33,255 bases of DNA from a virus. Its lineage: Duplodnaviria; Heunggongvirae; Uroviricota; Caudoviricetes. Position numbers and translations under genes: made by a program. The notes under the pieces were generated by a model, which saw only the letters and a list, made by a program, of their open reading frames with translations, was not told the DNA's origin and searched no databases. The stretch lies in IMG/VR virus record IMGVR_UViG_2737471834_000009. One strand, written 5' to 3'. Of this stretch, positions 1 to 17,595 are shown piece by piece; within the stretch, counting starts at the first letter, position 1, and the number at the start of each line of letters is the position of its first letter.

Positions 1-1020
1 CTACTTACTGACCACAAGCGGCAAATCCAGTGTTGGTGTGATTTTGGTTTTACGATCGTAAATCAACACCTGATTTTCTGTTTTATGTCCACTGAAAATT
101 TGTTTGTCGCGGCTGCTGCCTTCGTAATCTGAAATCCCTTTGGCTTTTATGTCATGGAAGTTGCACCCAAACGGAGTGCCGGCTTTTTGCTCGGCTGCAC
201 GTTTAGCCTGATTCCACCAGTTGTTCAGCGTCTTAGCTATGACCTTCCCGCCTTTGGTTGTGTTGATCACATACTCGCATGTACTGGAAGATACATTTCT
301 GGCTAACTGGATCGCCGTGCGTAATCGCGGAGACCATTCTTTGATTTGCTTAGTGCCGGTCTTGTTTTGCTCAATGTAGATCCCCTTATCCATAATATCC
401 TGCCATTTCAGTTCGAGCACATCACCAAGCCTTGCCGCACAAAGATAGGATATCTCCATTGCAATGCGTAACTGTGGAGTTGCTTCCGCATATATCGCAG
501 CATACTGTTCATCGGTGATGTAAACAGTACGGGCCTTAAGCGTGAATTTTCTGACTCCTTTGCATGGATTATTTTTCACATATCCACGTTCATATCCCCA
601 TCCGTATACACGGCTCAGGCTTGCCAGTTCATGGTTTGCCTGGGTCTTGCTCTCAAGTCCTCGCTTATCCATGAAAATTCTTACCTGTTCTATTTTTACA
701 TTATCAGCAAGCACTTTTCCGAATACTGCCAGTAATGCCCTTTGATGTTGCCGATAATCTTTTTGAGTTCGTGGTGCCAATTCTGTAAATGCAGGGGAGT
801 CCATAAACATGTGCCATAATTTAGCGACAGTCATTATGTTGTGAAGTTTTGCTTTTTCCAGTTCATAATTTTGCCAGACTTTAGCCACGCTGGTTTCCCG
901 CACTTTTCCGAGCCCTATAGTTCTTGTGCTTCCTTCGGGTTTCCATACATAACTGTAACCATTCGATCTAACACGTGGCGGCAGTGCGTTATCTTTTTTG
1001 TTTTTTCTTGGTCTTCCCAT
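1..1020 (-). CDS. int: phage integrase, tyrosine recombinase family
   Basis: 339-aa ORF with basic N-terminal arm-binding-like region and C-terminal catalytic-like region ending ...HKTENQVLIYDRK; first gene of the prophage, followed by an overlapping small upstream gene. Confidence 0.85.
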   Translation of the reverse strand: MGRPRKNKKDNALPPRVRSNGYSYVWKPEGSTRTIGLGKVRETSVAKVWQNYELEKAKLHNIMTVAKLWHMFMDSPAFTELAPRTQKDYRQHQRALLAVFGKVLADNVKIEQVRIFMDKRGLESKTQANHELASLSRVYGWGYERGYVKNNPCKGVRKFTLKARTVYITDEQYAAIYAEATPQLRIAMEISYLCAARLGDVLELKWQDIMDKGIYIEQNKTGTKQIKEWSPRLRTAIQLARNVSSSTCEYVINTTKGGKVIAKTLNNWWNQAKRAAEQKAGTPFGCNFHDIKAKGISDYEGSSRDKQIFSGHKTENQVLIYDRKTKITPTLDLPLVVSK

Positions 1021-1240
1021 TGTTCAGCGCCTCAAAATCGGGTTCAGCAGAAACCAGTTCAGATACTTTCGACATCGCTTTCAGCCCGTGCGGAACATCC
1101 TGGCGAAGAACTATTGGTTCGTTTTTAGGTCCGACTACAAACGGGATGCCGTGCAGCCTTAGCTGGTGTTGCTGTCTTGTGTATCGCGTGTATCTTGTGA
1201 TCTCTTCAATCTCTGCTGGCGATAGAGTTAATTCGTACAT
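989..1240 (-). CDS. putative excisionase / small DNA-binding protein (assigned by position)
   Basis: Small ORF overlapping the integrase start by 32 nt; internal ATG start gives MYELTLSPAEIEEI...; no clear match to lambda Xis. Confidence 0.45.
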   Translation of the reverse strand: MYELTLSPAEIEEITRYTRYTRQQHQLRLHGIPFVVGPKNEPIVLRQDVPHGLKAMSKVSELVSAEPDFEALNNGKTKKKQKR

Positions 1241-1306
1241 GTGGTCACGTGCCTTACAGCATGACCGCCGCCAATATAATTCGGAGACGGCGATCATGGT
1301 TGAACA

Positions 1307-3748
1307 TTAAAAATCAACCGGATTCGGGATCAGTTTTTGCCAGATAGCTGAAACGTATTTTGCCTGGTAACGAGCGTCATCAAGTGCATTATGGCGCTCA
1401 CCTTCGAATGGAATAGCCGTTCTGGCATCGAAGTCTATGGCTTTCCCCAGCTCAACGATTGTGCGTACATCGCGATCGTTGTAGTAACGCCACGGGCAGG
1501 GGATCCCCTGCCGTTCGTATGAACGGCGCAAAATCGTGTTGTCGAAGTTGGCTCCATTTCCCCAGACCTGAACAAAAAATTCACCGGAGTTTTCGTCGAT
1601 AAATTCCCGCAATTGTAACAGTGCATCATCTAACGGGATTTCATCGGTCATAATGGCAGATTGCGCTTCGCGTGATTGCTTAAGCCACCATTTAATGGTG
1701 TCCCGATCAATGACTCCGCCAGCAGTTTCCAGATCGATAGTCTTACTAAATTCCGGTCCCATATCTCCGGTTTGCGGATCGAAAAATATTGCACCTATTG
1801 AGATGATCGGGGCATCAGGATTTTTTCCCATGGTTTCAAGGTCGATCATTAGATGGTCACACGTCCTGCTGGTGGATGTGATTTCGTGATGACCGTTCAC
1901 CTTAATTGAGTGATCTGCCGTCTCGCCAGTTTTATTATCGCTGGCGTGATGCTGATTGCCGCCAGGGTTCTCCTTGTGTGGATGTTCAGCGCCTTCCATT
2001 TCCTCCGGATCATTTTCCTGAACTTCAACCTGATTCTCTTCATCGAATGTTTCCTGGTATGTTGCGTCGCCCATCACCGCGCCACAATCAGGGCAGTTGC
2101 CGCCACCGCTCTGACCGCAGGCGGTGCAGACTTTTTCCGGTTCCTGTTGCGCTACTGGTTCGGATTGTTTCGTTTCTGGCTCGTTTTGTAACGCATTTGG
2201 GCTGTTTTGTTCCGCTTTTTGGTCGTTCCGTTCCGATTCATGCTGGTTCTGGTTCACAGAATCGCGAGTCTGGATCCCCTTGACCCATTTCGGATCATTA
2301 GGGTCGCTAATCCCCTCAACAAATTCACCACGCGATACAGCAAGTAACTTATCGGCGTCAGGCTGGCTGATATTGGCTGCCTGCATAATTTTGTTTACTT
2401 CGTCAGCGGTGACTTTTACTTGGTTAGCGGAACTCACCTGCGACTGAGCATCCAGCGACTGCGCGTTCTGGCCATGTTCAGTTGTATCCGGTTCCATTGT
2501 TTCAGTTGTTGCCTGTTCACCTGCCATTGCGTCAGATGGTTGTGGTTTTTCTTCTTCTGTTTCACGCTCAGTAACCACCTCGCGGTTAATTTCTTCCAGG
2601 ATATCTTTTTCCGGCGTATGCCGGGCAGCTGTGAGAGTTTCCTTGCTGGGGTTCTCGTGATCAGTTTCCGTCAAATAGGCGTTGATATACCCCTGAAGGC
2701 GTCCCGGGTAGTGATAAAATTCAGGGTGTGCGCTTCGGATAAGTGCAAAAATAGCGGCGCGGGAATAGTCCAGAATACCCGGGGTTGCACGAAGTGCTGC
2801 GGACCATTCTTTGAACGGACTTTCTTTGTTCAGGACTACTTCTTTTGCGCGACGATAAACGCTGCCCGGAATTTCATAAATATTAAAATCCATCGGAAGT
2901 GTGGCTGCTGCAATCTCCACATCCAGTGTGTCGAGGGTGTGTACTAAATTCGGATTGCGATCGGTTTTGTTCCCACCGCCAGCATTAGCACCGGAAGCCG
3001 TGCGGGTGATGCGTGAAACACGATTTCCTTTCATCCACTCTTTTGTCAGCAGGCCGCGATCGGTGTAGTCAGCGTCCAGGTATGCTTCGAAAAAAGCAGT
3101 CATTAATCCCAGACTGGAATTAACGGGATTAGGGAAAACTTTGTCAGTGTCGCGAACCAGTTTGTGGAGGTCGCGAAGTTCCAGTGGGTCGAGCAGGCTG
3201 GTTTTGTGCGAAATAGCCAGGGCAGTAACTGCCGGTAGCTCTTCAGCCCGAGCGATATGTAATGCCTGAAGTTCATCTCTTGAAACGTGTGTTACTGGTT
3301 TTTCGCTGCCGTGTTGAGCAAGCCAACGGATAGCCACCTCCTGACCGGAAACTGGCAGGAGCATGCTCTCCTCAATCTCCGTCATGTCTTCGCCGTTAAC
3401 ATTGGTATTTTCGGTGCTGGCTGGTTTGTTCTGCACAGAGGGAGATGGCGCGGTGAATACCATTGTGATGCCATCTTCACCGCCTTTTTCATAGCGGTTA
3501 CAGAATTCGGTATCAAACACGCCTTCTGGTGGAAGGTCATTCACAACAGGCAAATGGACGCGAACAGGTTTTTTAAAGTCCTCTTCGTCGTAACCAGCAT
3601 CATCCATTGCGACATTACCGCGGGAAACTGCAACAGATAATTTTTTTGCTGTAGTCCAGTAAAAACCGCCTTTAATACCGAGACGTTTTCTGACTTTGTC
3701 ATTTTTGGCTTCGTAATGGAGTGCAATGTCTTGTTTGTCAGTGCTCAT
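1307..3748 (-). CDS. large exonuclease-like protein with C-terminal DnaQ-like (DEDDh) 3'-5' exonuclease domain
   Basis: C-terminus has motifs DLETMG, WGNGANFD and HNALDDARY typical of DEDD exonucleases; central CxxC...CxxC (CTACGQSGGGNCPDCG); long acidic Q/E-rich linker; RBS GAGG before ATG at 3748. Confidence 0.7.
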   Translation of the reverse strand: MSTDKQDIALHYEAKNDKVRKRLGIKGGFYWTTAKKLSVAVSRGNVAMDDAGYDEEDFKKPVRVHLPVVNDLPPEGVFDTEFCNRYEKGGEDGITMVFTAPSPSVQNKPASTENTNVNGEDMTEIEESMLLPVSGQEVAIRWLAQHGSEKPVTHVSRDELQALHIARAEELPAVTALAISHKTSLLDPLELRDLHKLVRDTDKVFPNPVNSSLGLMTAFFEAYLDADYTDRGLLTKEWMKGNRVSRITRTASGANAGGGNKTDRNPNLVHTLDTLDVEIAAATLPMDFNIYEIPGSVYRRAKEVVLNKESPFKEWSAALRATPGILDYSRAAIFALIRSAHPEFYHYPGRLQGYINAYLTETDHENPSKETLTAARHTPEKDILEEINREVVTERETEEEKPQPSDAMAGEQATTETMEPDTTEHGQNAQSLDAQSQVSSANQVKVTADEVNKIMQAANISQPDADKLLAVSRGEFVEGISDPNDPKWVKGIQTRDSVNQNQHESERNDQKAEQNSPNALQNEPETKQSEPVAQQEPEKVCTACGQSGGGNCPDCGAVMGDATYQETFDEENQVEVQENDPEEMEGAEHPHKENPGGNQHHASDNKTGETADHSIKVNGHHEITSTSRTCDHLMIDLETMGKNPDAPIISIGAIFFDPQTGDMGPEFSKTIDLETAGGVIDRDTIKWWLKQSREAQSAIMTDEIPLDDALLQLREFIDENSGEFFVQVWGNGANFDNTILRRSYERQGIPCPWRYYNDRDVRTIVELGKAIDFDARTAIPFEGERHNALDDARYQAKYVSAIWQKLIPNPVDF

Positions 3749-3877
3749 TGTTTTTAACCTCAACTAAGATTAAAATTCCTCCGGAATGATGAATAAATGT
3801 CCCAGGTTCATCATTCTGGCCTGCACTGAGTGCAGGCCTTTTTACCATTCAGATTTCATCTTTTAGTTCTGTCCCAA

Positions 3878-4123
3878 TCAGTGAGGCCAGATACATGTCT
3901 TTTTTTCTGCAGGCAGATTCTTAATGATATGCACCAGACACATTTTTTTAACACCATCGTTAAGTGTTTTAACATTTCCTGAGAAACCGTAGATATCAAC
4001 CACAGTGAATGGGGTTTCTTTATTTTCTGTCTTAATTACGTAGCCAATACGCTTTTCTTCAAGATTAACCTCGTGAACAATATTATCAGCAGTAACAGTA
4101 GTGACTTCATAACTGGTAATCAT
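3878..4123 (-). CDS. hypothetical small protein, distal gene of the dicB operon
   Basis: 81-aa ORF from internal ATG preceded by AAGGAGA; position downstream of ydfD. Confidence 0.45.
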   Translation of the reverse strand: MITSYEVTTVTADNIVHEVNLEEKRIGYVIKTENKETPFTVVDIYGFSGNVKTLNDGVKKMCLVHIIKNLPAEKKTCIWPH

Positions 4124-4207
4124 ATTTTTCTCCTTAATTAAGGTTGAGTGAATCCCTGCCATTGCTGGCATATAAGAATGAAACCGGATATTTATTACGG
4201 AACTGTT

Positions 4208-4399
4208 TTAAAGACCTGCCGGGATTTCGATATTATCCTGGTGAATAACTTTATCGACCGGGTAACAGTTACCGGGAATTTTCTGTTCGGTTGCTGCAGT
4301 CATACACTCCTGCATTGTCCTGTGAACACTGACTGCAATATCAACTGGCTCTCCGGAAACAAGAAAAACTGTCAGAACAAGCGCAAATGCTGAATTCAT
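4208..4399 (-). CDS. ydfD: YdfD-like small membrane protein
   Basis: 63-aa product MNSAFALVLTVFLVSGEP... with hydrophobic N-terminus; start overlaps dicB stop (ATGA); same position and size as Qin prophage ydfD. Confidence 0.65.
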   Translation of the reverse strand: MNSAFALVLTVFLVSGEPVDIAVSVHRTMQECMTAATEQKIPGNCYPVDKVIHQDNIEIPAGL

Positions 4400-4584
4400 T
4401 GTGCACATCCTTTTGGCATCAGACGTAAACGAGCCAGCATTGAAACAATGCATATTTTATTTAATAGCTCCCGTTCTTGTTTTCTCTTGTTAATGGCATC
4501 TTCAGTAAATACAGGGTTACTGATAGTGACACCAATTTCAAAACAACCTTCAGACGTATTAACGTTTGGTAATAACGTTTTCAT
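4396..4584 (-). CDS. dicB: cell division inhibitor DicB
   Basis: 62-aa product MKTLLPNVNTSEGCFEIGVTISNPVFTEDAINKRKQERELLNKICIVSMLARLRLMPKGCAQ matches my memory of E. coli DicB; lies immediately downstream of the DicF sRNA. Confidence 0.85.
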   Translation of the reverse strand: MKTLLPNVNTSEGCFEIGVTISNPVFTEDAINKRKQERELLNKICIVSMLARLRLMPKGCAQ

Positions 4585-4753
4585 TATCGCGTCCTCAACA
4601 ATGAATTTTGTGATGCAGTGCCTGGTGCCTCCAGGTGACGTTAACCAGTTAACAATTAACGCCGGATACAGAGAATCCACCCATAACACTGTTTTTGGTT
4701 TTAACTGTTCCGCGTGCGCTTAGCCGCATTCACCGCATCACAAAATTCACTTT

Positions 4754-4811
4754 AAAAAGGGCGGCAGAGCAGTCACGGAGTAAAACTGATACCGCCAAAC
4801 GTCACCAGAAA
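4754..4811 (-). ncRNA. dicF: DicF small RNA (ftsZ-targeting sRNA) with intrinsic terminator
   Basis: Minus-strand sequence TTTCTGGTGACGTTTGGCGGTATCAGTTTTACTCCGTGACTGCTCTGCCGCCC followed by a T-run; GGCGG...CCGCC terminator hairpin; located between ydfC and dicB as in the Qin prophage. Confidence 0.8.
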
Positions 4812-5152
4812 ATTGATAACAGAGGGCGTTGCAGCGGGGTTGTCACTTAAGCGTATGGTCAACCTGACAACCCGGTGTCCTCAACGGGGGAAGGAATAAC
4901 CCCGCCATACTTACCGCCGCGCCATTTCGCGGATTGCCACAACCGGAAGCGCACGGTCGACGAAAATTTAACGACAGGCTATCTATGAACCAGCTACCTC
5001 GCCGTGCGCTTTCGCGTTATGGTCTGACTTTTCAGGGAAATATCCTTTCAGTAAACTGTCAGTGCCGGATGCTCACCCGTGTCCGGCGCACGCACTCCAC
5101 CTCACCCGTGGAGAACTCCTTAATTACCAACCTTAGCTTCGTTGGTTAGCTA

Positions 5153-5371
5153 TTAACGCGGGTATGTAATCATTCTGGCAATGGTTAATGCCGCTGCTTT
5201 TTCCAGCCTGGTGATATCCTGCTCCAGAGAGGACAGATTTTCAGCCTGCTTAGCCCTGGCTTCATTAGCCCATTTCAGATCCTGCGCTGCATTAATTTTC
5301 TGGTGCATCCACTCATAAAGTTCATCATCGGTATAGTCTGGCGCGATGATGACGGGTTCTCGTTTCTGCAT
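5153..5371 (-). CDS. ydfC: YdfC-like hypothetical protein
   Basis: 72-aa ORF in the expected position and size between ydfB and DicF. Confidence 0.6.
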   Translation of the reverse strand: MQKREPVIIAPDYTDDELYEWMHQKINAAQDLKWANEARAKQAENLSSLEQDITRLEKAAALTIARMITYPR

Positions 5372-5400
5372 ACTGATTCCTCGCGGTGCTGTTTCGCTTA

Positions 5401-5529
5401 TCAGCCGTTAGATTTTGCCGAACTGGAAAGCGCCTGTTTAAATTCGCTGAAGCTGTGAGCTCCTTCGCCTTCGGCAAGGCCTTCGAAGTATTCTTCGTAA
5501 GCCTTTTCCATGATTGTGTCAAAATCCAT
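5401..5529 (-). CDS. ydfB: YdfB-like small protein
   Basis: 42-aa ORF MDFDTIMEKAYEEYFEGLAEGEGAHSFSEFKQALSSSAKSNG translated by hand from the minus strand; below the size cut-off of the ORF track. Confidence 0.65.
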   Translation of the reverse strand: MDFDTIMEKAYEEYFEGLAEGEGAHSFSEFKQALSSSAKSNG

Positions 5530-5530
5530 A

Positions 5531-5686
5531 TCACTCACCTGAGTTTCTTTCCAGCCAGCGACGGGCACCATTTTCGGTTTTAAACGTTTTGCTTTTGGTA
5601 TACGTCATTGCGGTGAAGGTGCCGTCCTGGTTTGGAAACACGCCGTACACCAGAGATTCGTTGTTGCCAAGATCGATAGTATCCAT
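5531..5686 (-). CDS. ydfA: YdfA-like small protein (first gene of the dicB operon)
   Basis: 51-aa product from internal Met MDTIDLGNNESLVYGVFPNQDG...; a start at 5767 is also possible. Confidence 0.6.
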   Translation of the reverse strand: MDTIDLGNNESLVYGVFPNQDGTFTAMTYTKSKTFKTENGARRWLERNSGE

Positions 5687-5865
5687 GCTGACCTCATTTC
5701 CCCTTAACGCCGGGGTAGCGGAACAAAAACCTGCTGCATAGTTATTAAAGTTGAACCCTGCCGTCATGTTCTTACGCCTCGGGCTGGCTACTTAACCCCT
5801 GACCACTGCCGGGTAACTCGAAGTATTGCCTGGCGTTCTGTGGGGCGGGGTGGGTTTATGGATAC

Positions 5866-5895
5866 AATTTACAAATTAAAATTTAACTGGTCAAC
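5866..5895 (-). promoter_or_regulatory. putative pL-like promoter of the dicB operon, overlapped by operator half-sites
   Basis: Minus-strand -35 TTGACC (5894-5889), 17-bp spacer, -10 TAAATT (5871-5866); half-site TTTACAAAT overlaps the -10. Confidence 0.4.
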
Positions 5896-5927
5896 ATGTT
5901 TATTATTAAATTTGTAATTGCGAGCTG

Positions 5928-5962
5928 TTGCATCAGTCCCAAAATGGGACTACTATACAGTT
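5928..5962 (+). promoter_or_regulatory. putative promoter with palindromic operator for the HigB/HigA-like pair
   Basis: -35 TTGCAT (5928-5933), -10 TACTAT (5951-5956), with palindrome GTCCCA-AAA-TGGGAC (5936-5950) in the spacer; predicted start site at or next to the ATG at 5963. Confidence 0.4.
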
Positions 5963-6265
5963 ATGAAGATTATCTCAGTTAAAACACTCAGGGATTTTTG
6001 GGCGGAGAATCCTGATGCAGAACAACCGCTAAGGGCATGGGTGGATGAGGCGGCAAAAGCTGACTGGAAAAGCCCAGCAGACATTAAGGCACAATACCGA
6101 ACGGCCAGTATATTGAAAAACCGGCGCGTGGTATTCAACATAAAAGGTAATCATTACCGTTTAATTGTTGCAATTGCGTATCAGCGAGGATGGGTATTTG
6201 TTAAATTCATCGGAAACCACAAGGAATACGATGCTATTGATGCTGATACCATCGAACTGGAGTAA
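5963..6265 (+). CDS. HigB-like toxin (RelE/ParE superfamily mRNA interferase)
   Basis: 100-aa product MKIISVKTLRDFWAENPDAEQ...VFNIKGNHYRLIVAIAYQ...FIGNHKEYD resembles HigB family proteins from memory; toxin gene precedes the antitoxin as in higBA. Confidence 0.75.
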   Translation: MKIISVKTLRDFWAENPDAEQPLRAWVDEAAKADWKSPADIKAQYRTASILKNRRVVFNIKGNHYRLIVAIAYQRGWVFVKFIGNHKEYDAIDADTIELE

Positions 6266-6267
6266 GC

Positions 6268-6627
6268 ATGAACATCAAACCTATTCGTACAGAGCAAGAT
6301 TATGAAGCCGCGTTGCGTGCTGTTGAACCCATGTTCGACAATGAGCCCGAAATTGACACGCCTGAGGGGGATTTTTTTGAGGTGATGTGTTTGCTAATAG
6401 AGGAATATGAAAAAAAACATTATCCCATTGAGCCACCATCCCCAATTGAAGCTATAAGATTTCGCATGGAACAGCAGGGGCTGACTGTGAAAGATTTGGA
6501 ACCCGCAATTGGGAAAAAAAATCGGGTTTATGAGGTGTTGAATGGTACCAGAAGCCTTACGTTACCAATGATTCGCCGTCTTCATAATCAATTTGGTATC
6601 CCCCTGGAAAGCCTGGTTGGATTATAA
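6268..6627 (+). CDS. HigA-like antitoxin, HTH XRE family
   Basis: 119-aa product with C-terminal helix-turn-helix (LTVKDLEPAIGKKNRVYEVLNGTRSLTLPMIRRLHNQFGIP); starts 3 nt after the toxin stop. Confidence 0.75.
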   Translation: MNIKPIRTEQDYEAALRAVEPMFDNEPEIDTPEGDFFEVMCLLIEEYEKKHYPIEPPSPIEAIRFRMEQQGLTVKDLEPAIGKKNRVYEVLNGTRSLTLPMIRRLHNQFGIPLESLVGL

Positions 6628-6673: not shown

Positions 6674-7072
6674 TCAGGCAGTTTTGTTTTTCTGCCGCAG
6701 TAACTCTTCAAGTTTCCGTTTATAGAAATCGCGTTTTTGCTCCATATCACGAATGATCTGCTCTGCGTCGCTTTGAGGTAACTCATCTAAAAGCGATATG
6801 ATTTTTCGTTGTTGTTCTGTAAGTTGCGGTTGGTTGTCATTACTGGATACAGCCATTTTATCGCCGAGAGTTTCTTCTTCCATAAAGAACCAATGGACGG
6901 GATGTTGTGAGAGCTCTGCTAATTTTTCCAGTTTATCCATTCTTGGCATCACGCCTTTCAACCAACCTTGCACGGATTGGGGTTTTACACCAAGACGTCT
7001 TCCCAGCTCTGACTGGTTTATATTCAATTCCTGCAACACCTGCTGAAGGCGTTTTACAAAGATCATCACCAC
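6674..7072 (-). CDS. DicA-like prophage repressor (HTH XRE family, CI-like position)
   Basis: N-terminal HTH (LNINQSELGRRLGVKPQSVQGWLKG); acidic/basic C-terminal tail resembling DicA; divergent from a cro-like gene across an operator-containing intergenic region. Confidence 0.75.
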   Translation of the reverse strand: MVMIFVKRLQQVLQELNINQSELGRRLGVKPQSVQGWLKGVMPRMDKLEKLAELSQHPVHWFFMEEETLGDKMAVSSNDNQPQLTEQQRKIISLLDELPQSDAEQIIRDMEQKRDFYKRKLEELLRQKNKTA

Positions 7073-7120: not shown

Positions 7121-7162
7121 ATTACAAATAGAAGTTGAAATTTAAATTTAAATTTGTAATTA
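7121..7162. promoter_or_regulatory. putative OR-like operator/promoter region between repressor and cro-like gene
   Basis: Inverted half-sites TTACAAAT (7122-7129) and ATTTGTAA (7153-7160); the same half-sites recur at 5868-5918; candidate -35 TTGAAA at 7134-7139. Confidence 0.45.
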
Positions 7163-7192: not shown

Positions 7193-7453
7193 ATGCAAAA
7201 AAGTACTCAAGTGAAAATCCTGTCAATAATGAGCCAATCAGAATTAGGGCGTCGTCTTGGTAAAACACCGCAAACCATAAGTGGGTGGTTTAAAAAACGA
7301 GTGCCAGCGGAGGAGGTTATACCAGCATGTGAGGCGCTTGACTGGGGAGTAACTCCGCATGAATTGCGCCCTGATAAATACCCTAATCCAACCGATGGTT
7401 TACCTGTTGAGTATCAGGCTAACGCACAAGCAGCGGCGGGAGTTGATTCATGA
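7193..7453 (+). CDS. Cro/YdaS-like transcriptional regulator
   Basis: 86-aa HTH protein (SQSELGRRLGKTPQTISGWF) divergent from the repressor; RBS GGAGGG upstream. Confidence 0.7.
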   Translation: MQKSTQVKILSIMSQSELGRRLGKTPQTISGWFKKRVPAEEVIPACEALDWGVTPHELRPDKYPNPTDGLPVEYQANAQAAAGVDS

Positions 7454-7875
7454 AAATCAAGCATGAACACATCCGCATGGCGATGAATGCCTGGGCGCAT
7501 CCAGACGGCGAGAAAGTACCGGCTGCGAAAATTACCAAAGCGTATTTCGAACTGGGTATGACGTTCCCGGAACTGTACGACGACAGCCATCCGGAAGCCC
7601 TGGGCCGTAACACCCAGAAAATTTTCCGCTGGGTGGAGAAAGACACCCCTGATGCGGTTAAAAAAATTCAGGCGTTGTTACCAGCTATCGAAAAAGCAAT
7701 GCCACCTCTGCTGGTGGCCCGAATGCGCAGTCATAGCTCAGCCTATTTTCGGGAACTAGTGGAGACGCGGGAACGACTGGTGAGAGACGCTGATGATTTT
7801 GTCGCAGTGGCGATCGCTGGTTTCAACCAGATGAATCGTGGTGGCCCTGCAGGAAATATTGTGGCTGTGCATTGA
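7450..7875 (+). CDS. YdaT-like protein (CII-position regulator/toxin-like family)
   Basis: 141-aa product beginning MKIKHEHI and ending VH, as in Rac prophage YdaT; start overlaps the upstream stop. Confidence 0.7.
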   Translation: MKIKHEHIRMAMNAWAHPDGEKVPAAKITKAYFELGMTFPELYDDSHPEALGRNTQKIFRWVEKDTPDAVKKIQALLPAIEKAMPPLLVARMRSHSSAYFRELVETRERLVRDADDFVAVAIAGFNQMNRGGPAGNIVAVH

Positions 7876-13358: not shown

Positions 13359-13639
13359 GAAGGAAACAAAACAGAAACAACAATTGCCGTTACCTGTTGT
13401 TACCATGGCAAGTAAACGTATCTCAGGCGAGCGCATTGCGCCGTTCTGACGCAGATAAATTAGCCTGGATAGAAGGTGCTGGCAATAAAAAATAGCGTTT
13501 TCTTATCGGTGTCGGTAAGATTGCTGCGGGTGCTTGAGGCTGTCTGCCTCAGGCATGCCACTGTAAGGCAGACAGAGAAAAGCCCCAGTTAACATTATGC
13601 GTCCGGCAAGACGCTTAACATTAATCTGAGGCTCAATCT

Positions 13640-13852
13640 ATGAACGGCAAATCTAGGTTAGCCTCTTACGCGCCGAAAGGCAAGGAGAAGCAGGCTATGA
13701 AGCAGCAAAAGGCGATGTTAGTCGCCCTGATCGTCATCTGTATTACCGTCATTGTGACGGCACTGGTAACGAGGAAAGACCTCTGCGAGGTACGAATCCG
13801 AACCGGCCAGACGGAGGTCACTGTCTTCACAGCTTACGAACCTGAGGAGTAA
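13640..13852 (+). CDS. Mok-like reading frame (in-frame N-terminal extension of Hok)
   Basis: 70-aa ORF containing the hok frame, as in chromosomal mok/hok loci. Confidence 0.55.
   Translation: MNGKSRLASYAPKGKEKQAMKQQKAMLVALIVICITVIVTALVTRKDLCEVRIRTGQTEVTVFTAYEPEE
13697..13852 (+). CDS. hok: Hok/Gef family type I toxin
   Basis: 51-aa product MKQQKAMLVALIVICITVIVTALVTRKDLCEVRIRTGQTEVTVFTAYEPEE is near-identical to remembered HokD/RelF; mRNA leader has the tac-like hairpin GCTTGAGGCTGTCTGCCTCAGG. Confidence 0.85.
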   Translation: MKQQKAMLVALIVICITVIVTALVTRKDLCEVRIRTGQTEVTVFTAYEPEE

Positions 13853-17285: not shown

Positions 17286-17361
17286 GGCCCTTTAGCTCAG
17301 TGGTGAGAGCGAGCGACTCATAATCGCCAGGTCGCTGGTTCAAATCCAGCAAGGGCCACCA
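17286..17361 (+). tRNA. tRNA, anticodon CAU (ileX/ileZ-like tRNA-Ile2; tRNA-Met not excluded)
   Basis: Manual cloverleaf: acceptor GGCCCTT/AAGGGCC, anticodon loop CTCATAA, T-loop TTCAAAT, CCA encoded; close to remembered ileX. Confidence 0.8.
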
Positions 17362-17362
17362 A

Positions 17363-17439
17363 CCGCCACTAGCTCATCAGGAAAGAGCGTCAACCCTTTA
17401 AGTTGAGTGTGCGAGGTTCGAGTCCCCGGTGGCGGTCCA
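17363..17439 (+). tRNA. atypical tRNA, anticodon loop CCTTTAA (anticodon UUU, Lys-like, with C at position 33)
   Basis: Manual cloverleaf: acceptor CCGCCAC/GTGGCGG (C1-G72), D-loop with GG, T-loop TTCGAGT, CCA encoded; isotype uncertain. Confidence 0.55.
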
Positions 17440-17441
17440 GT

Positions 17442-17517
<76 letters not shown>

Positions 17518-17520
17518 TAT

Positions 17521-17595
<75 letters not shown>

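Follow-up and report, generated by a model that had tools for sequence, protein, structure and literature searches.

The window analysed here, a stretch of DNA of 33,255 nt, extends from an integrase gene to the tail genes, within which it ends, and belongs to what is apparently a complete lambdoid prophage. Its leftward transcription unit carries ydfA-ydfB-ydfC-dicF-dicB-ydfD without frameshift on the minus strand (5686..4208), followed by a phrog_4778 ORF and by the genes for an exonuclease, an excisionase and an integrase. Upstream of ydfA lie a conserved structured leader, a candidate pL promoter overlapped by putative operators, a higBA toxin-antitoxin pair and the divergent genes of a repressor and a Cro-like protein (Table 1).

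Table 1. Features of the leftward transcription unit and of the adjoining immunity region (positions in the window).
Feature	Position	Strand	Basis
integrase	1020..1	-	leftward unit; annotation of close relatives
excisionase	1297..989	-	leftward unit; annotation of close relatives
exonuclease	3763..1307	-	leftward unit; annotation of close relatives
phrog_4778 ORF	4123..3878	-	leftward transcription unit
ydfD (DUF1482, 63 aa)	4208..4399	-	Pfam PF07358, 92 bits; V6A is the sole aa difference from K-12
dicB (62 aa)	4396..4584	-	Pfam PF05358; protein identical to K-12
dicF sRNA (4811..4759) with terminator U-tract (4758..4754)	4754..4811	-	Rfam RF00039; identical to K-12
ydfC (72 aa)	5153..5371	-	4 aa differences from K-12; phrog_1744 match
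ydfB (42 aa)	5401..5529	-	2 aa differences from K-12; phrog_2061 match
ydfA (DUF1391, 51 aa)	5531..5686	-	Pfam PF07151, 98.5 bits; protein identical to K-12
conserved structured leader RNA (115 nt), 5' end of the predicted pL transcript	5746..5860	-	covariance model R1, covariation
candidate pL promoter (-35 TTGACC 5894..5889, 17-nt spacer, -10 TAAATT 5871..5866)	5866..5894	-	consensus and conservation
putative operator OL1 (18 bp, TTACAAATTAAAATTTAA), overlapping the pL spacer and -10	5869..5886		repeat of OR
putative operator OL2 (18 bp), upstream of -35, between pL and the divergent higB promoter	5900..5917		repeat and conservation
higB	5963..6265	+	Pfam HigB_toxin, 113.7 bits
higA	6268..6627	+	HTH_3
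prophage repressor (130 aa, HTH_3 only)	6674..7066	-	distant DicA homologue, 22% identity over full length
putative OR operators (7122-7139 and 7142-7159), between repressor and cro-like genes	7122..7159		repeat match
YdaS-like cro	7193..7453	+	Pfam YdaS_toxin
YdaT/cII-like regulator	7450..7875	+	phrog_163, CII-like

Integrity of the dicBF operon body

A sequence-only reading of this DNA had proposed an intact DicF/DicB cell division inhibition operon between positions 4396 and 5770. Alignment with the dicB operon of the K-12 Qin prophage bore out its completeness: the segment 5724..4138, which begins 38 nt before ydfA and extends 70 nt beyond ydfD, shows 98.2% nucleotide identity. It differs by 28 substitutions and by a 1-nt indel at 4890, between genes, and all five ORFs are intact in the order known from K-12. 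DicB matched its Pfam model over residues 1-62 of 62 (136.8 bits, cut-off 27), and its gene differs from the K-12 copy by a single synonymous change at position 4513. The proposed range does include dicF and dicB, but leaves out ydfD (4399..4208), which overlaps the dicB stop by 4 nt, as well as the control region (5866-5917). Its end coordinate 5770 follows a 78-aa ORF starting with an ATG at 5767, the strand of the operon being minus. We considered this ORF as the true version of ydfA and dropped it because relatives carry frame-breaking indels; the start of ydfA in K-12 and PGAP annotation is the internal ATG at 5686, preceded by a GAGG Shine-Dalgarno sequence.

The sRNA gene is equally well preserved. 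The full-length Rfam model of DicF was matched at 4810..4759 (-) with 76.7 bits (gathering score 48, E 1.9e-15), and there are zero differences from the 53-nt K-12 dicF (L001 3883-3935), target-pairing regions included. Its flanks are also identical to K-12, the nearest differences lying 79 nt upstream and 24 nt downstream. At the 3' end, the Rfam-aligned stem with GCCGCCC followed by TTTTT at 4758..4754 constitutes a Rho-independent terminator. In K-12, RNase E and RNase III process the operon transcript to yield DicF (PMC5069750).

The dicBF module is found in most E. coli genomes, and its occurrence in differing prophage contexts was previously known (PMC5069750). The module described here is therefore an ordinary intact copy of a known element, with nothing new in the module itself. 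Beyond the shared segment the two prophages diverge, since Qin carries ydfE, IS2 and intQ pseudogenes whereas the exonuclease, xis and int genes are intact here.

Immunity region and candidate pL promoter

No DNA homology to Qin was detected by alignment upstream of 5724, and dicA, dicC and the Qin operators are absent from this region. The repressor is only distantly related to DicA, the Cro-like protein gave no alignment with DicC, and the operators are of the TTACAAAT type here versus the TGTTAGTCATnnCTAA type in K-12. Control by DicA/DicC via Qin operators, which the sequence-only reading implied in proposing alignment with the K-12 Qin operon and which the common gene order and the high identity of the operon body might have suggested, is thus extremely improbable and was ruled out by the alignment and the protein comparison. 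The immunity region resembles that of Rac (racR-ydaS-ydaT) in its YdaS-like Cro, its YdaT/CII-like protein and its HTH-only repressor, although Rac carries kilR and sieB instead of dicF and dicB, and the repressor and operator sequences differ. The position of higBA between the repressor and pL is a feature of this prophage that distinguishes it from Qin, and is common to 145 E. coli genomes.

The candidate sigma-70 promoter facing the operon has 9/12 consensus matches, in a promoter scan that overall was not enriched over shuffles (9 found vs 6.7 expected). TTGAC and the -10 positions T1, A2 and T6 are conserved in 7 loci with 91-99% identity, across which OL1 is invariant. Positions 7142-7159, between the repressor and cro genes, are 94% complementary to OL1, and the half-site TTACAAAT occurs in four copies in 33 kb, confined to OL and OR and arranged as inverted pairs. 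K-12 Qin PdicB (TTGACC-17-TAATCT) shows the same layout, one operator lying in the spacer and another upstream. Moreover, where the immunity type differs, as in thousands of E. coli copies, homology begins at 5856-5850, just past the pL -10, as expected for the boundary of an immunity module.

These consensus and repeat matches point to a lambdoid pL/OL arrangement, with a promoter overlapped by operators that recur at OR and a divergent pair of repressor and cro-like genes nearby. The pL-like promoter and operators of the sequence-only reading hence have a plausible counterpart in a repressor-controlled leftward promoter upstream of the operon, but these are not the Qin/DicA elements and they lie outside 4396-5770. 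We consider it likely that this region represents promoter-proximal sequence of the repressor-controlled early-left (pL) operon in a lambdoid prophage that appears complete.

The further suggestion of that reading, that the operon may be inducible, is an inference, and SOS inducibility is not supported, because the repressor has no S24 autocleavage domain in Pfam searches. Neither an antirepressor nor an SOS-cleavable repressor was seen among the ORFs scanned, and with the S24 domain missing as well, no inducing signal can be proposed. Concerning the K-12 operon, it was reported to be unresponsive to SOS inducers (PMC5069750), and all attempts to induce it from the native promoter failed (PMC5069750; bioRxiv 10.1101/708461). 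The operon might accordingly be an intact but silent passenger, with a promoter that is inactive or permanently repressed, never expressed and conferring no phenotype. The K-12 operon being without a known natural inducer, the failure to find an SOS-cleavable repressor or an antirepressor among the ORFs scanned here and a promoter recognised by its consensus would all agree with this explanation. However, the coding sequences and DicF are intact, apparently under purifying selection, the promoter and operators are kept in the relatives 91-99% identical, the prophage appears complete, and the same module, together with the leader, is present in deposited phage records that, to judge by their names, come from isolated phages. 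We therefore regard a permanently silent operon as quite improbable.

A conserved structured leader RNA downstream of the candidate pL promoter

Immediately downstream of the candidate promoter, covariance model R1 matched a 115-nt element with 80 bits (E 1e-20). It comprises a closing helix P1, a long P2 arm with the invariant loop CAAUACYNCGAGUUA, the short hairpins P3 and P4, and an invariant GAACAUGACGGC. This predicted four-way-junction fold is supported by many compensatory base-pair changes: among 47 distinct sequences from six genera, 22 of the 31 pairs show such changes, and 84.9% of cells are paired compared to 27-44% in slid controls. RNAalifold independently recovered P1 and P2b. 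The fold is thermodynamically not unusual (z = +1.3), and the case for the structure rests on covariation. Strand assignment relied on the conserved promoter, which ends 4-12 nt upstream of the leader in most lineages; G-U vs A-C counts and strand-specific energies did not confirm the strand and, if anything, slightly favour the antisense one. The invariance of unpaired leader nucleotides across the six genera suggests that a conserved host factor recognises them.

The leader is present in Rac, just downstream of racR (L008:2500-2609, 65.7 bits), in approximately 3750 E. coli genomes and in five other genera, but according to covariance model R1 it is missing from K-12 Qin and from HK022. It precedes unrelated first genes in different lineages, among them ydfA, N-like genes and others, which favours a function linked to the 5' end of the transcript over one linked to a particular gene. 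Rfam searches of 3.8 kb (E <= 5) and of 161 nt (E <= 10) gave no match, and we found no description of the element in the literature. HnrS (EcOnc10-12) is located in late genes and is unrelated.

As in the pL-nutL-N region of lambda, the leader lies between pL/OL and the first early-left gene. It differs from nutL in being far larger than the boxB hairpin and in lying upstream, not downstream, of boxA. In Arsenophonus and Symbiopectobacterium, relatives of the leader are lambda-like in preceding the boxA-like CGCTCTTTAAC and an N-like gene. The window itself showed no boxA or nut site near the leader when 2 mismatches were allowed, and no arginine-rich N-like ORF exists between pL and ydfA.

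Proposed working of the operon and candidate roles of the leader

In the lysogen, the DicA/RacR-type HTH repressor would bind both the OL and the OR sites and thereby keep pL off. Upon loss of repression, transcription would start near 5860, producing an RNA with the structured leader ahead of ydfA, ydfB and ydfC. By the route demonstrated in the near-identical operon of K-12, DicF would then be freed from the polycistronic RNA: RNase E would generate its 5' end, and its 3' end would arise either where transcription stops at the DicF hairpin and U5 tract or through RNase III cleavage. Polymerases reading through would proceed into dicB and ydfD and, in this prophage, also into the exonuclease, excisionase and integrase genes. 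DicF is expected to repress translation of ftsZ, while DicB together with MinC would block Z-ring formation and also ManYZ-dependent entry of phage DNA. The phage exclusion foreseen in the sequence-only reading is carried over from work on K-12, where the identical DicB protein causes MinC-dependent division inhibition and inhibition of ManYZ (bioRxiv 10.1101/708461), and may by analogy apply here.

In a manner functionally comparable to HK022 putL, the leader could act in cis to modify RNA polymerase during elongation, so that pL transcripts of this N-less phage would extend beyond the DicF terminator and cover dicB, ydfD, exo, xis and int. Similar to putL, it is a structured RNA directly downstream of pL in an N-less lambdoid phage (PMC9378689): in most lineages at most a few nt separate its first position from the start of a repressor-controlled promoter, and here the -10 ends 5 nt before it. 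The invariant unpaired nucleotides would suit recognition by a host factor. Although neither an N-like ORF nor a boxA is found in this prophage, its operon contains an intrinsic terminator, and the K-12 Qin copy is without the leader. By contrast, put measures about 70 nt and forms two stem-loops, and homology of the leader to HK022 putL was rejected, given that no similarity to the HK022 pL region was found by blastn, by eye or with model R1. Nor is there a second, putR-like copy linked to pR, the window holding a single one. Furthermore, the leader is not simply a substitute for N since Arsenophonus and Symbiopectobacterium have it alongside boxA and an N-like gene, and both its ordinary folding energy and the strand counts weigh against this function. 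We thus hold a putL-like activity to be a possible, if doubtful, hypothesis.

A different role, such as stabilisation against RNase E, a protein binding site controlling translation of the first gene, or a processed RNA acting in trans, appears about evenly balanced between true and false. The structure and conservation data apply to such roles equally, and retention of the leader before unrelated first genes is in line with them. Nothing specific speaks against them, except that the invariant loop has no complementary target within the window. It is more speculative, and in our estimation rather unlikely, that the leader constitutes an undescribed widespread class of RNA, the first pL product of many Enterobacterales lambdoid prophages, which acts in cis to carry transcription past internal terminators. 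Such an RNA would determine whether pL transcription yields only DicF or also DicB, the exonuclease, Xis and Int, and K-12 Qin, the model on which study of the operon was based, would be atypical in having lost such control.

Altogether, the operon transcript is predicted to start with a covariation-supported RNA that is absent from the K-12 model and matches no described family that we found. The combination of a non-DicA repressor with a seemingly complete prophage implies that deletion of the repressor or induction could reveal when the operon is naturally expressed. If the leader governs read-through of the DicF terminator, this would change the view of how dicB, and more generally the early-left genes of lambdoid phages lacking N, are expressed.

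The dicBF operon and its prophage

The sequence-only reading had placed an intact DicF/DicB cell-division inhibition operon at 4396-5770. Searching the whole window with Rfam located DicF at 4810..4759 on the minus strand as a full-length model match (76.7 bits against a gathering score of 48, E 1.9e-15), and the 62 aa DicB at 4584..4396 (-) matched Pfam PF05358 across its entire length with 136.8 bits. Alignment of the MG1655 Qin region of K-12 with the reverse complement of the window, the check suggested for this operon, yielded a single colinear block (window 5724..4138, K-12 locus 2971..4556) of 98.2% identity, with 29 differences, of which 28 are substitutions and one is a 1-nt intergenic indel at 4890. 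dicF does not differ from K-12, dicB carries one synonymous difference, YdfA is identical, and YdfB, YdfC and YdfD differ by 2, 4 and 1 residues, respectively. The TTTTT directly after the DicF 3' hairpin is also the same in K-12. As this alignment revealed no frameshift and no broken reading frame in any operon ORF, the claim of an intact operon holds. The proposed range covers dicF and dicB but omits ydfD, and the operon lies on the minus strand.

Features of the operon, the immunity region and the start of the prophage
Feature	Coordinates	Strand	Basis or position
integrase	1020..1		window start
excisionase	1297..989
ydfD	4399..4208	-	ORF, Qin alignment
dicB	4584..4396	-	Pfam PF05358 and Qin alignment
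dicF	4811..4759	-	Rfam and Qin alignment
ydfC	5371..5153	-	ORF, Qin alignment
ydfB	5529..5401	-	ORF, Qin alignment
ydfA	5686..5531	-	ORF, Qin alignment
higB	5963..6265	+	upstream of operon
higA	6268..6627	+	upstream of operon
repressor, 130 aa, HTH_3 only	7066..6674	-	upstream of operon
YdaS-like cro	7193..7453	+	upstream of operon
YdaT/cII-like gene	7450..7875	+	upstream of operon
DnaT-type O and lambda-P-type replication genes			upstream of operon

The end coordinate 5770 matches the ATG of a 78-aa ORF extending ydfA upstream. This version was rejected, as its frame is not preserved in relatives and its start is used neither in K-12 nor in the PGAP annotation. The extension from ATG 5767 (5687-5767, -) would add 27 residues to YdfA, lies partly within the leader RNA described below, carries 1-nt indels in relatives and is probably not translated. 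Separately, the Salmonella sRNA candidate STnc100 gives an Rfam match below threshold (4552-4761, -; 34.8 bits, gathering score 47, E 4e-5) that spans the dicF-dicB spacer and the dicB 5' UTR.

A 2.2-kb operon query matched 4772 of 5426 complete E. coli genomes, at a median of 2 and a maximum of 10 places per genome, and also 60 phage records. Occurrence of the dicF/dicBF operon in many E. coli strains, in multiple copies and varied prophage contexts, has been published (PMC5069750). The module is therefore already known and ordinary, and its detection here is a correct identification of a very common module, without novelty.

After the excisionase gene come, in this order, an 818-aa exonuclease gene, a phrog_4778 ORF, the operon, the immunity region and the replication genes, and then hokD/sok, Q, four tRNAs, lysis genes, terminase, HK97-type head genes and tail genes. 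A leftward unit of ~5.9 kb, ending in xis and int, thus has the operon as its promoter-proximal part, and the prophage looks complete. In the closest complete genome (90% coverage, 96.5% identity) the prophage adjoins yccA. The 'exonuclease' (1307-3763, -) joins an N-terminal exodeoxyribonuclease VIII (RecE) segment to a C-terminal Rv2179c-like 3'-5' exoribonuclease domain through a long acidic, low-complexity linker. The 81-aa phrog_4778 ORF (4123..3878, -) is situated between ydfD and the exonuclease gene, where K-12 and strain ECO2947 lack it. Immediately beyond it, a hairpin resembling a terminator, with a T-tract (3818-3838, +), has no obvious plus-strand gene to terminate. In the pR operon, a type I toxin-antitoxin locus of the hok/sok type (hokD) is marked by a sok antitoxin RNA (13528-13702, +; Rfam RF01794, 111.7 bits). 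The four tRNA genes just 3' of the Q antiterminator gene (17286-17595, +) have the anticodons CAU, Lys-UUU, Thr-UGU and Gly-UCC, the first being Met according to ARAGORN and Ile in the annotation of a close relative.

Promoter, operators and immunity type

Qin homology ends 38 nt upstream of ydfA, so that the window lacks dicA, dicC and the promoter and operators of Qin. The repressor aligns over its full length with DicA at only 22% identity and no similarity between the cro-like protein and DicC was detectable, implying an immunity specificity unlike that of Qin. Toward the operon, a sigma-70-like promoter is predicted with -35 TTGACC (5894..5889), a 17-nt spacer and -10 TAAATT (5871..5866), although the promoter scan overall showed no enrichment over shuffles. 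The spacer and -10 of this promoter are overlapped by an 18-bp sequence (5869-5886) that shows 94% complementarity to 7142-7159, a segment between the repressor and cro genes, and further copies lie at 5900-5917 (OL2) and 7122-7139. Within the 33-kb window the half-site TTACAAAT appears four times in all, always at these four operator sites and as inverted pairs, compared to a mean of 1.24 in shuffles, of which 2 in 100 reach four. In 7 loci sharing the immunity region (91-99% identity) the operators, the -35 TTGAC and T1, A2 and T6 of the -10 are kept while adjacent bases vary. K-12 PdicB has the same layout (TTGACC, 17 nt, TAATCT) but different operator sequences: TGTTAGTCATGGCTAA occupies the spacer, and 35 bp upstream there is a related site. 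In thousands of copies with other immunity types, homology to the window starts at 5856-5850, right after the -10, where the boundary of an immunity module is expected. As judged from these sequence features, a pL-like promoter with operators exists; it was correctly anticipated, but belongs to an immunity system other than that of Qin and lies outside the range assigned to the operon.

Between the repressor gene and pL, higBA is inserted (5928-6627, +), an arrangement also found in 145 E. coli genomes. Its candidate promoter (TTGCAT, 17 nt, TACTAT) encloses the perfect palindrome AGTCCCAAAATGGGACT (5935-5951) and stands back to back with pL, with OL2 between the two. Since the higB ATG is only 6 nt past the -10, the higBA mRNA may be leaderless.

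The repressor has no S24 peptidase domain, no antirepressor was found among the scanned ORFs, and the K-12 operon is reported to respond neither to SOS agents nor to the other inducing conditions examined (PMC5069750; bioRxiv 10.1101/708461). The suggestion that the operon may be inducible therefore has no support other than the general expectation that pL is derepressed when the repressor is lost; inducibility and phage exclusion would both be extrapolations from K-12 work.

Distribution and fold of the leader element

The ~130-nt stretch from the -10 to the start of Qin homology is unannotated and nearly invariant in 7 related loci. A blastn search finds it in 3752 of 5426 E. coli genomes, with no annotated feature beneath any match; K-12 carries it in Rac, just downstream of racR (L008:2500-2609). 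Divergent copies in Actinobacillus phage vB_Apl-pPE4 and E. coli strain PEC209 pointed to compensatory changes, and single-sequence folds of several lineages share one architecture. In this architecture the 5' end pairs with the 3' tail in a closing helix (P1), a long arm of three segments (P2) bears the invariant loop CAAUACYNCGAGUUA at its tip, two short hairpins follow (P3, GGYU-AAGU-AGCC; P4, GCC-YGA-GGC), and an invariant single-stranded stretch has the 3' end GAACAUGA(C/A)GGC.

A covariance model built from a two-sequence Pectobacterium alignment carrying a hand-written structure located the element at 5860..5746 (80 bits, E 1e-20) as well as in all related loci, with no match in K-12 Qin or the HK022 pL region. 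An 18-base core pattern, run against a single genome of each species, gave 46 loci, comprising 41 that carry the element, one truncated Arsenophonus copy and 4 chance matches; true copies occur in Arsenophonus, Symbiopectobacterium, Serratia, Pectobacterium, Superficieibacter and Escherichia/Shigella. At least 120 IMG/VR contigs matched, and all 80 of those fetched contain the element. Several Arsenophonus and Symbiopectobacterium genomes are multi-copy, with 8 copies in Symbiopectobacterium purcellii and two, 2-3 kb apart, at some Arsenophonus loci.

Among 47 distinct sequences, whose alignment was fitted to our structure and so favours it, 84.9% of cells are paired compared to 27-44% with partners slid by 1-3 columns, and 22 of 31 pairs show compensatory changes. 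The covariation score of 0.392 exceeds that of shuffles (0.138; 0/500 reach it) and slid controls (0.02-0.075), and a per-genus table shows independent swaps at 10 or more pairs, e.g. GC/AU at columns 41/59 and 40/60 and CG/AU/GC at 26/77. From the same alignment RNAalifold independently recovered P1 and the middle of P2, with compensatory changes in 10 of 16 predicted pairs. The fold is not thermodynamically exceptional. We consider it highly probable that the element is genuine, conserved and structured.

Strand assignment and possible role

Neither G-U versus A-C counts (40 versus 57 in 34 dereplicated sequences) nor strand-specific energies favoured the pL-sense strand, the latter partly reflecting its C-rich composition. 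In most lineages the element begins 4-12 nt after a TTGACA-17-TAnnnT promoter (best match mean 8.4/12), with spacer (operator) sequences unrelated between immunity types despite the shared position, whereas the antisense side has only background matches (6.3/12). Exceptions are mainly Symbiopectobacterium copies with weak matches (4-6/12) further upstream. Since the promoter lies just upstream in most lineages, the element is read as the putative first 115 nt of the pL transcript.

No Rfam family matches the leader, and no description of it was found in the literature searched. It shares its position with HK022 putL, an antiterminator RNA (PMC9378689), but is unlike putL in sequence and fold. 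This position, together with a DicF intrinsic terminator inside an operon whose prophage contains neither an N-like gene nor boxA that we could find, makes a cis-acting effect on elongation attractive. However, the window has no second copy of the leader as the put analogy would predict, the unexceptional fold energy speaks against the analogy as well, and in Arsenophonus and Symbiopectobacterium (L013, L021, L040, L018, L025) a boxA-like CGCTCTTTAAC or TGCTCCTTTAAAA lies 15-25 nt past the element and precedes an N-like gene (phrog_271, E as low as 4e-19), which means that the element coexists with N there. We therefore regard antitermination in cis as rather unlikely, and another role tied to the 5' end, in stability, protein binding or as a processed RNA, as at least as likely. 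The conserved leader RNA, missing from the K-12 model copy of the operon, is the one feature here that could surprise a specialist.
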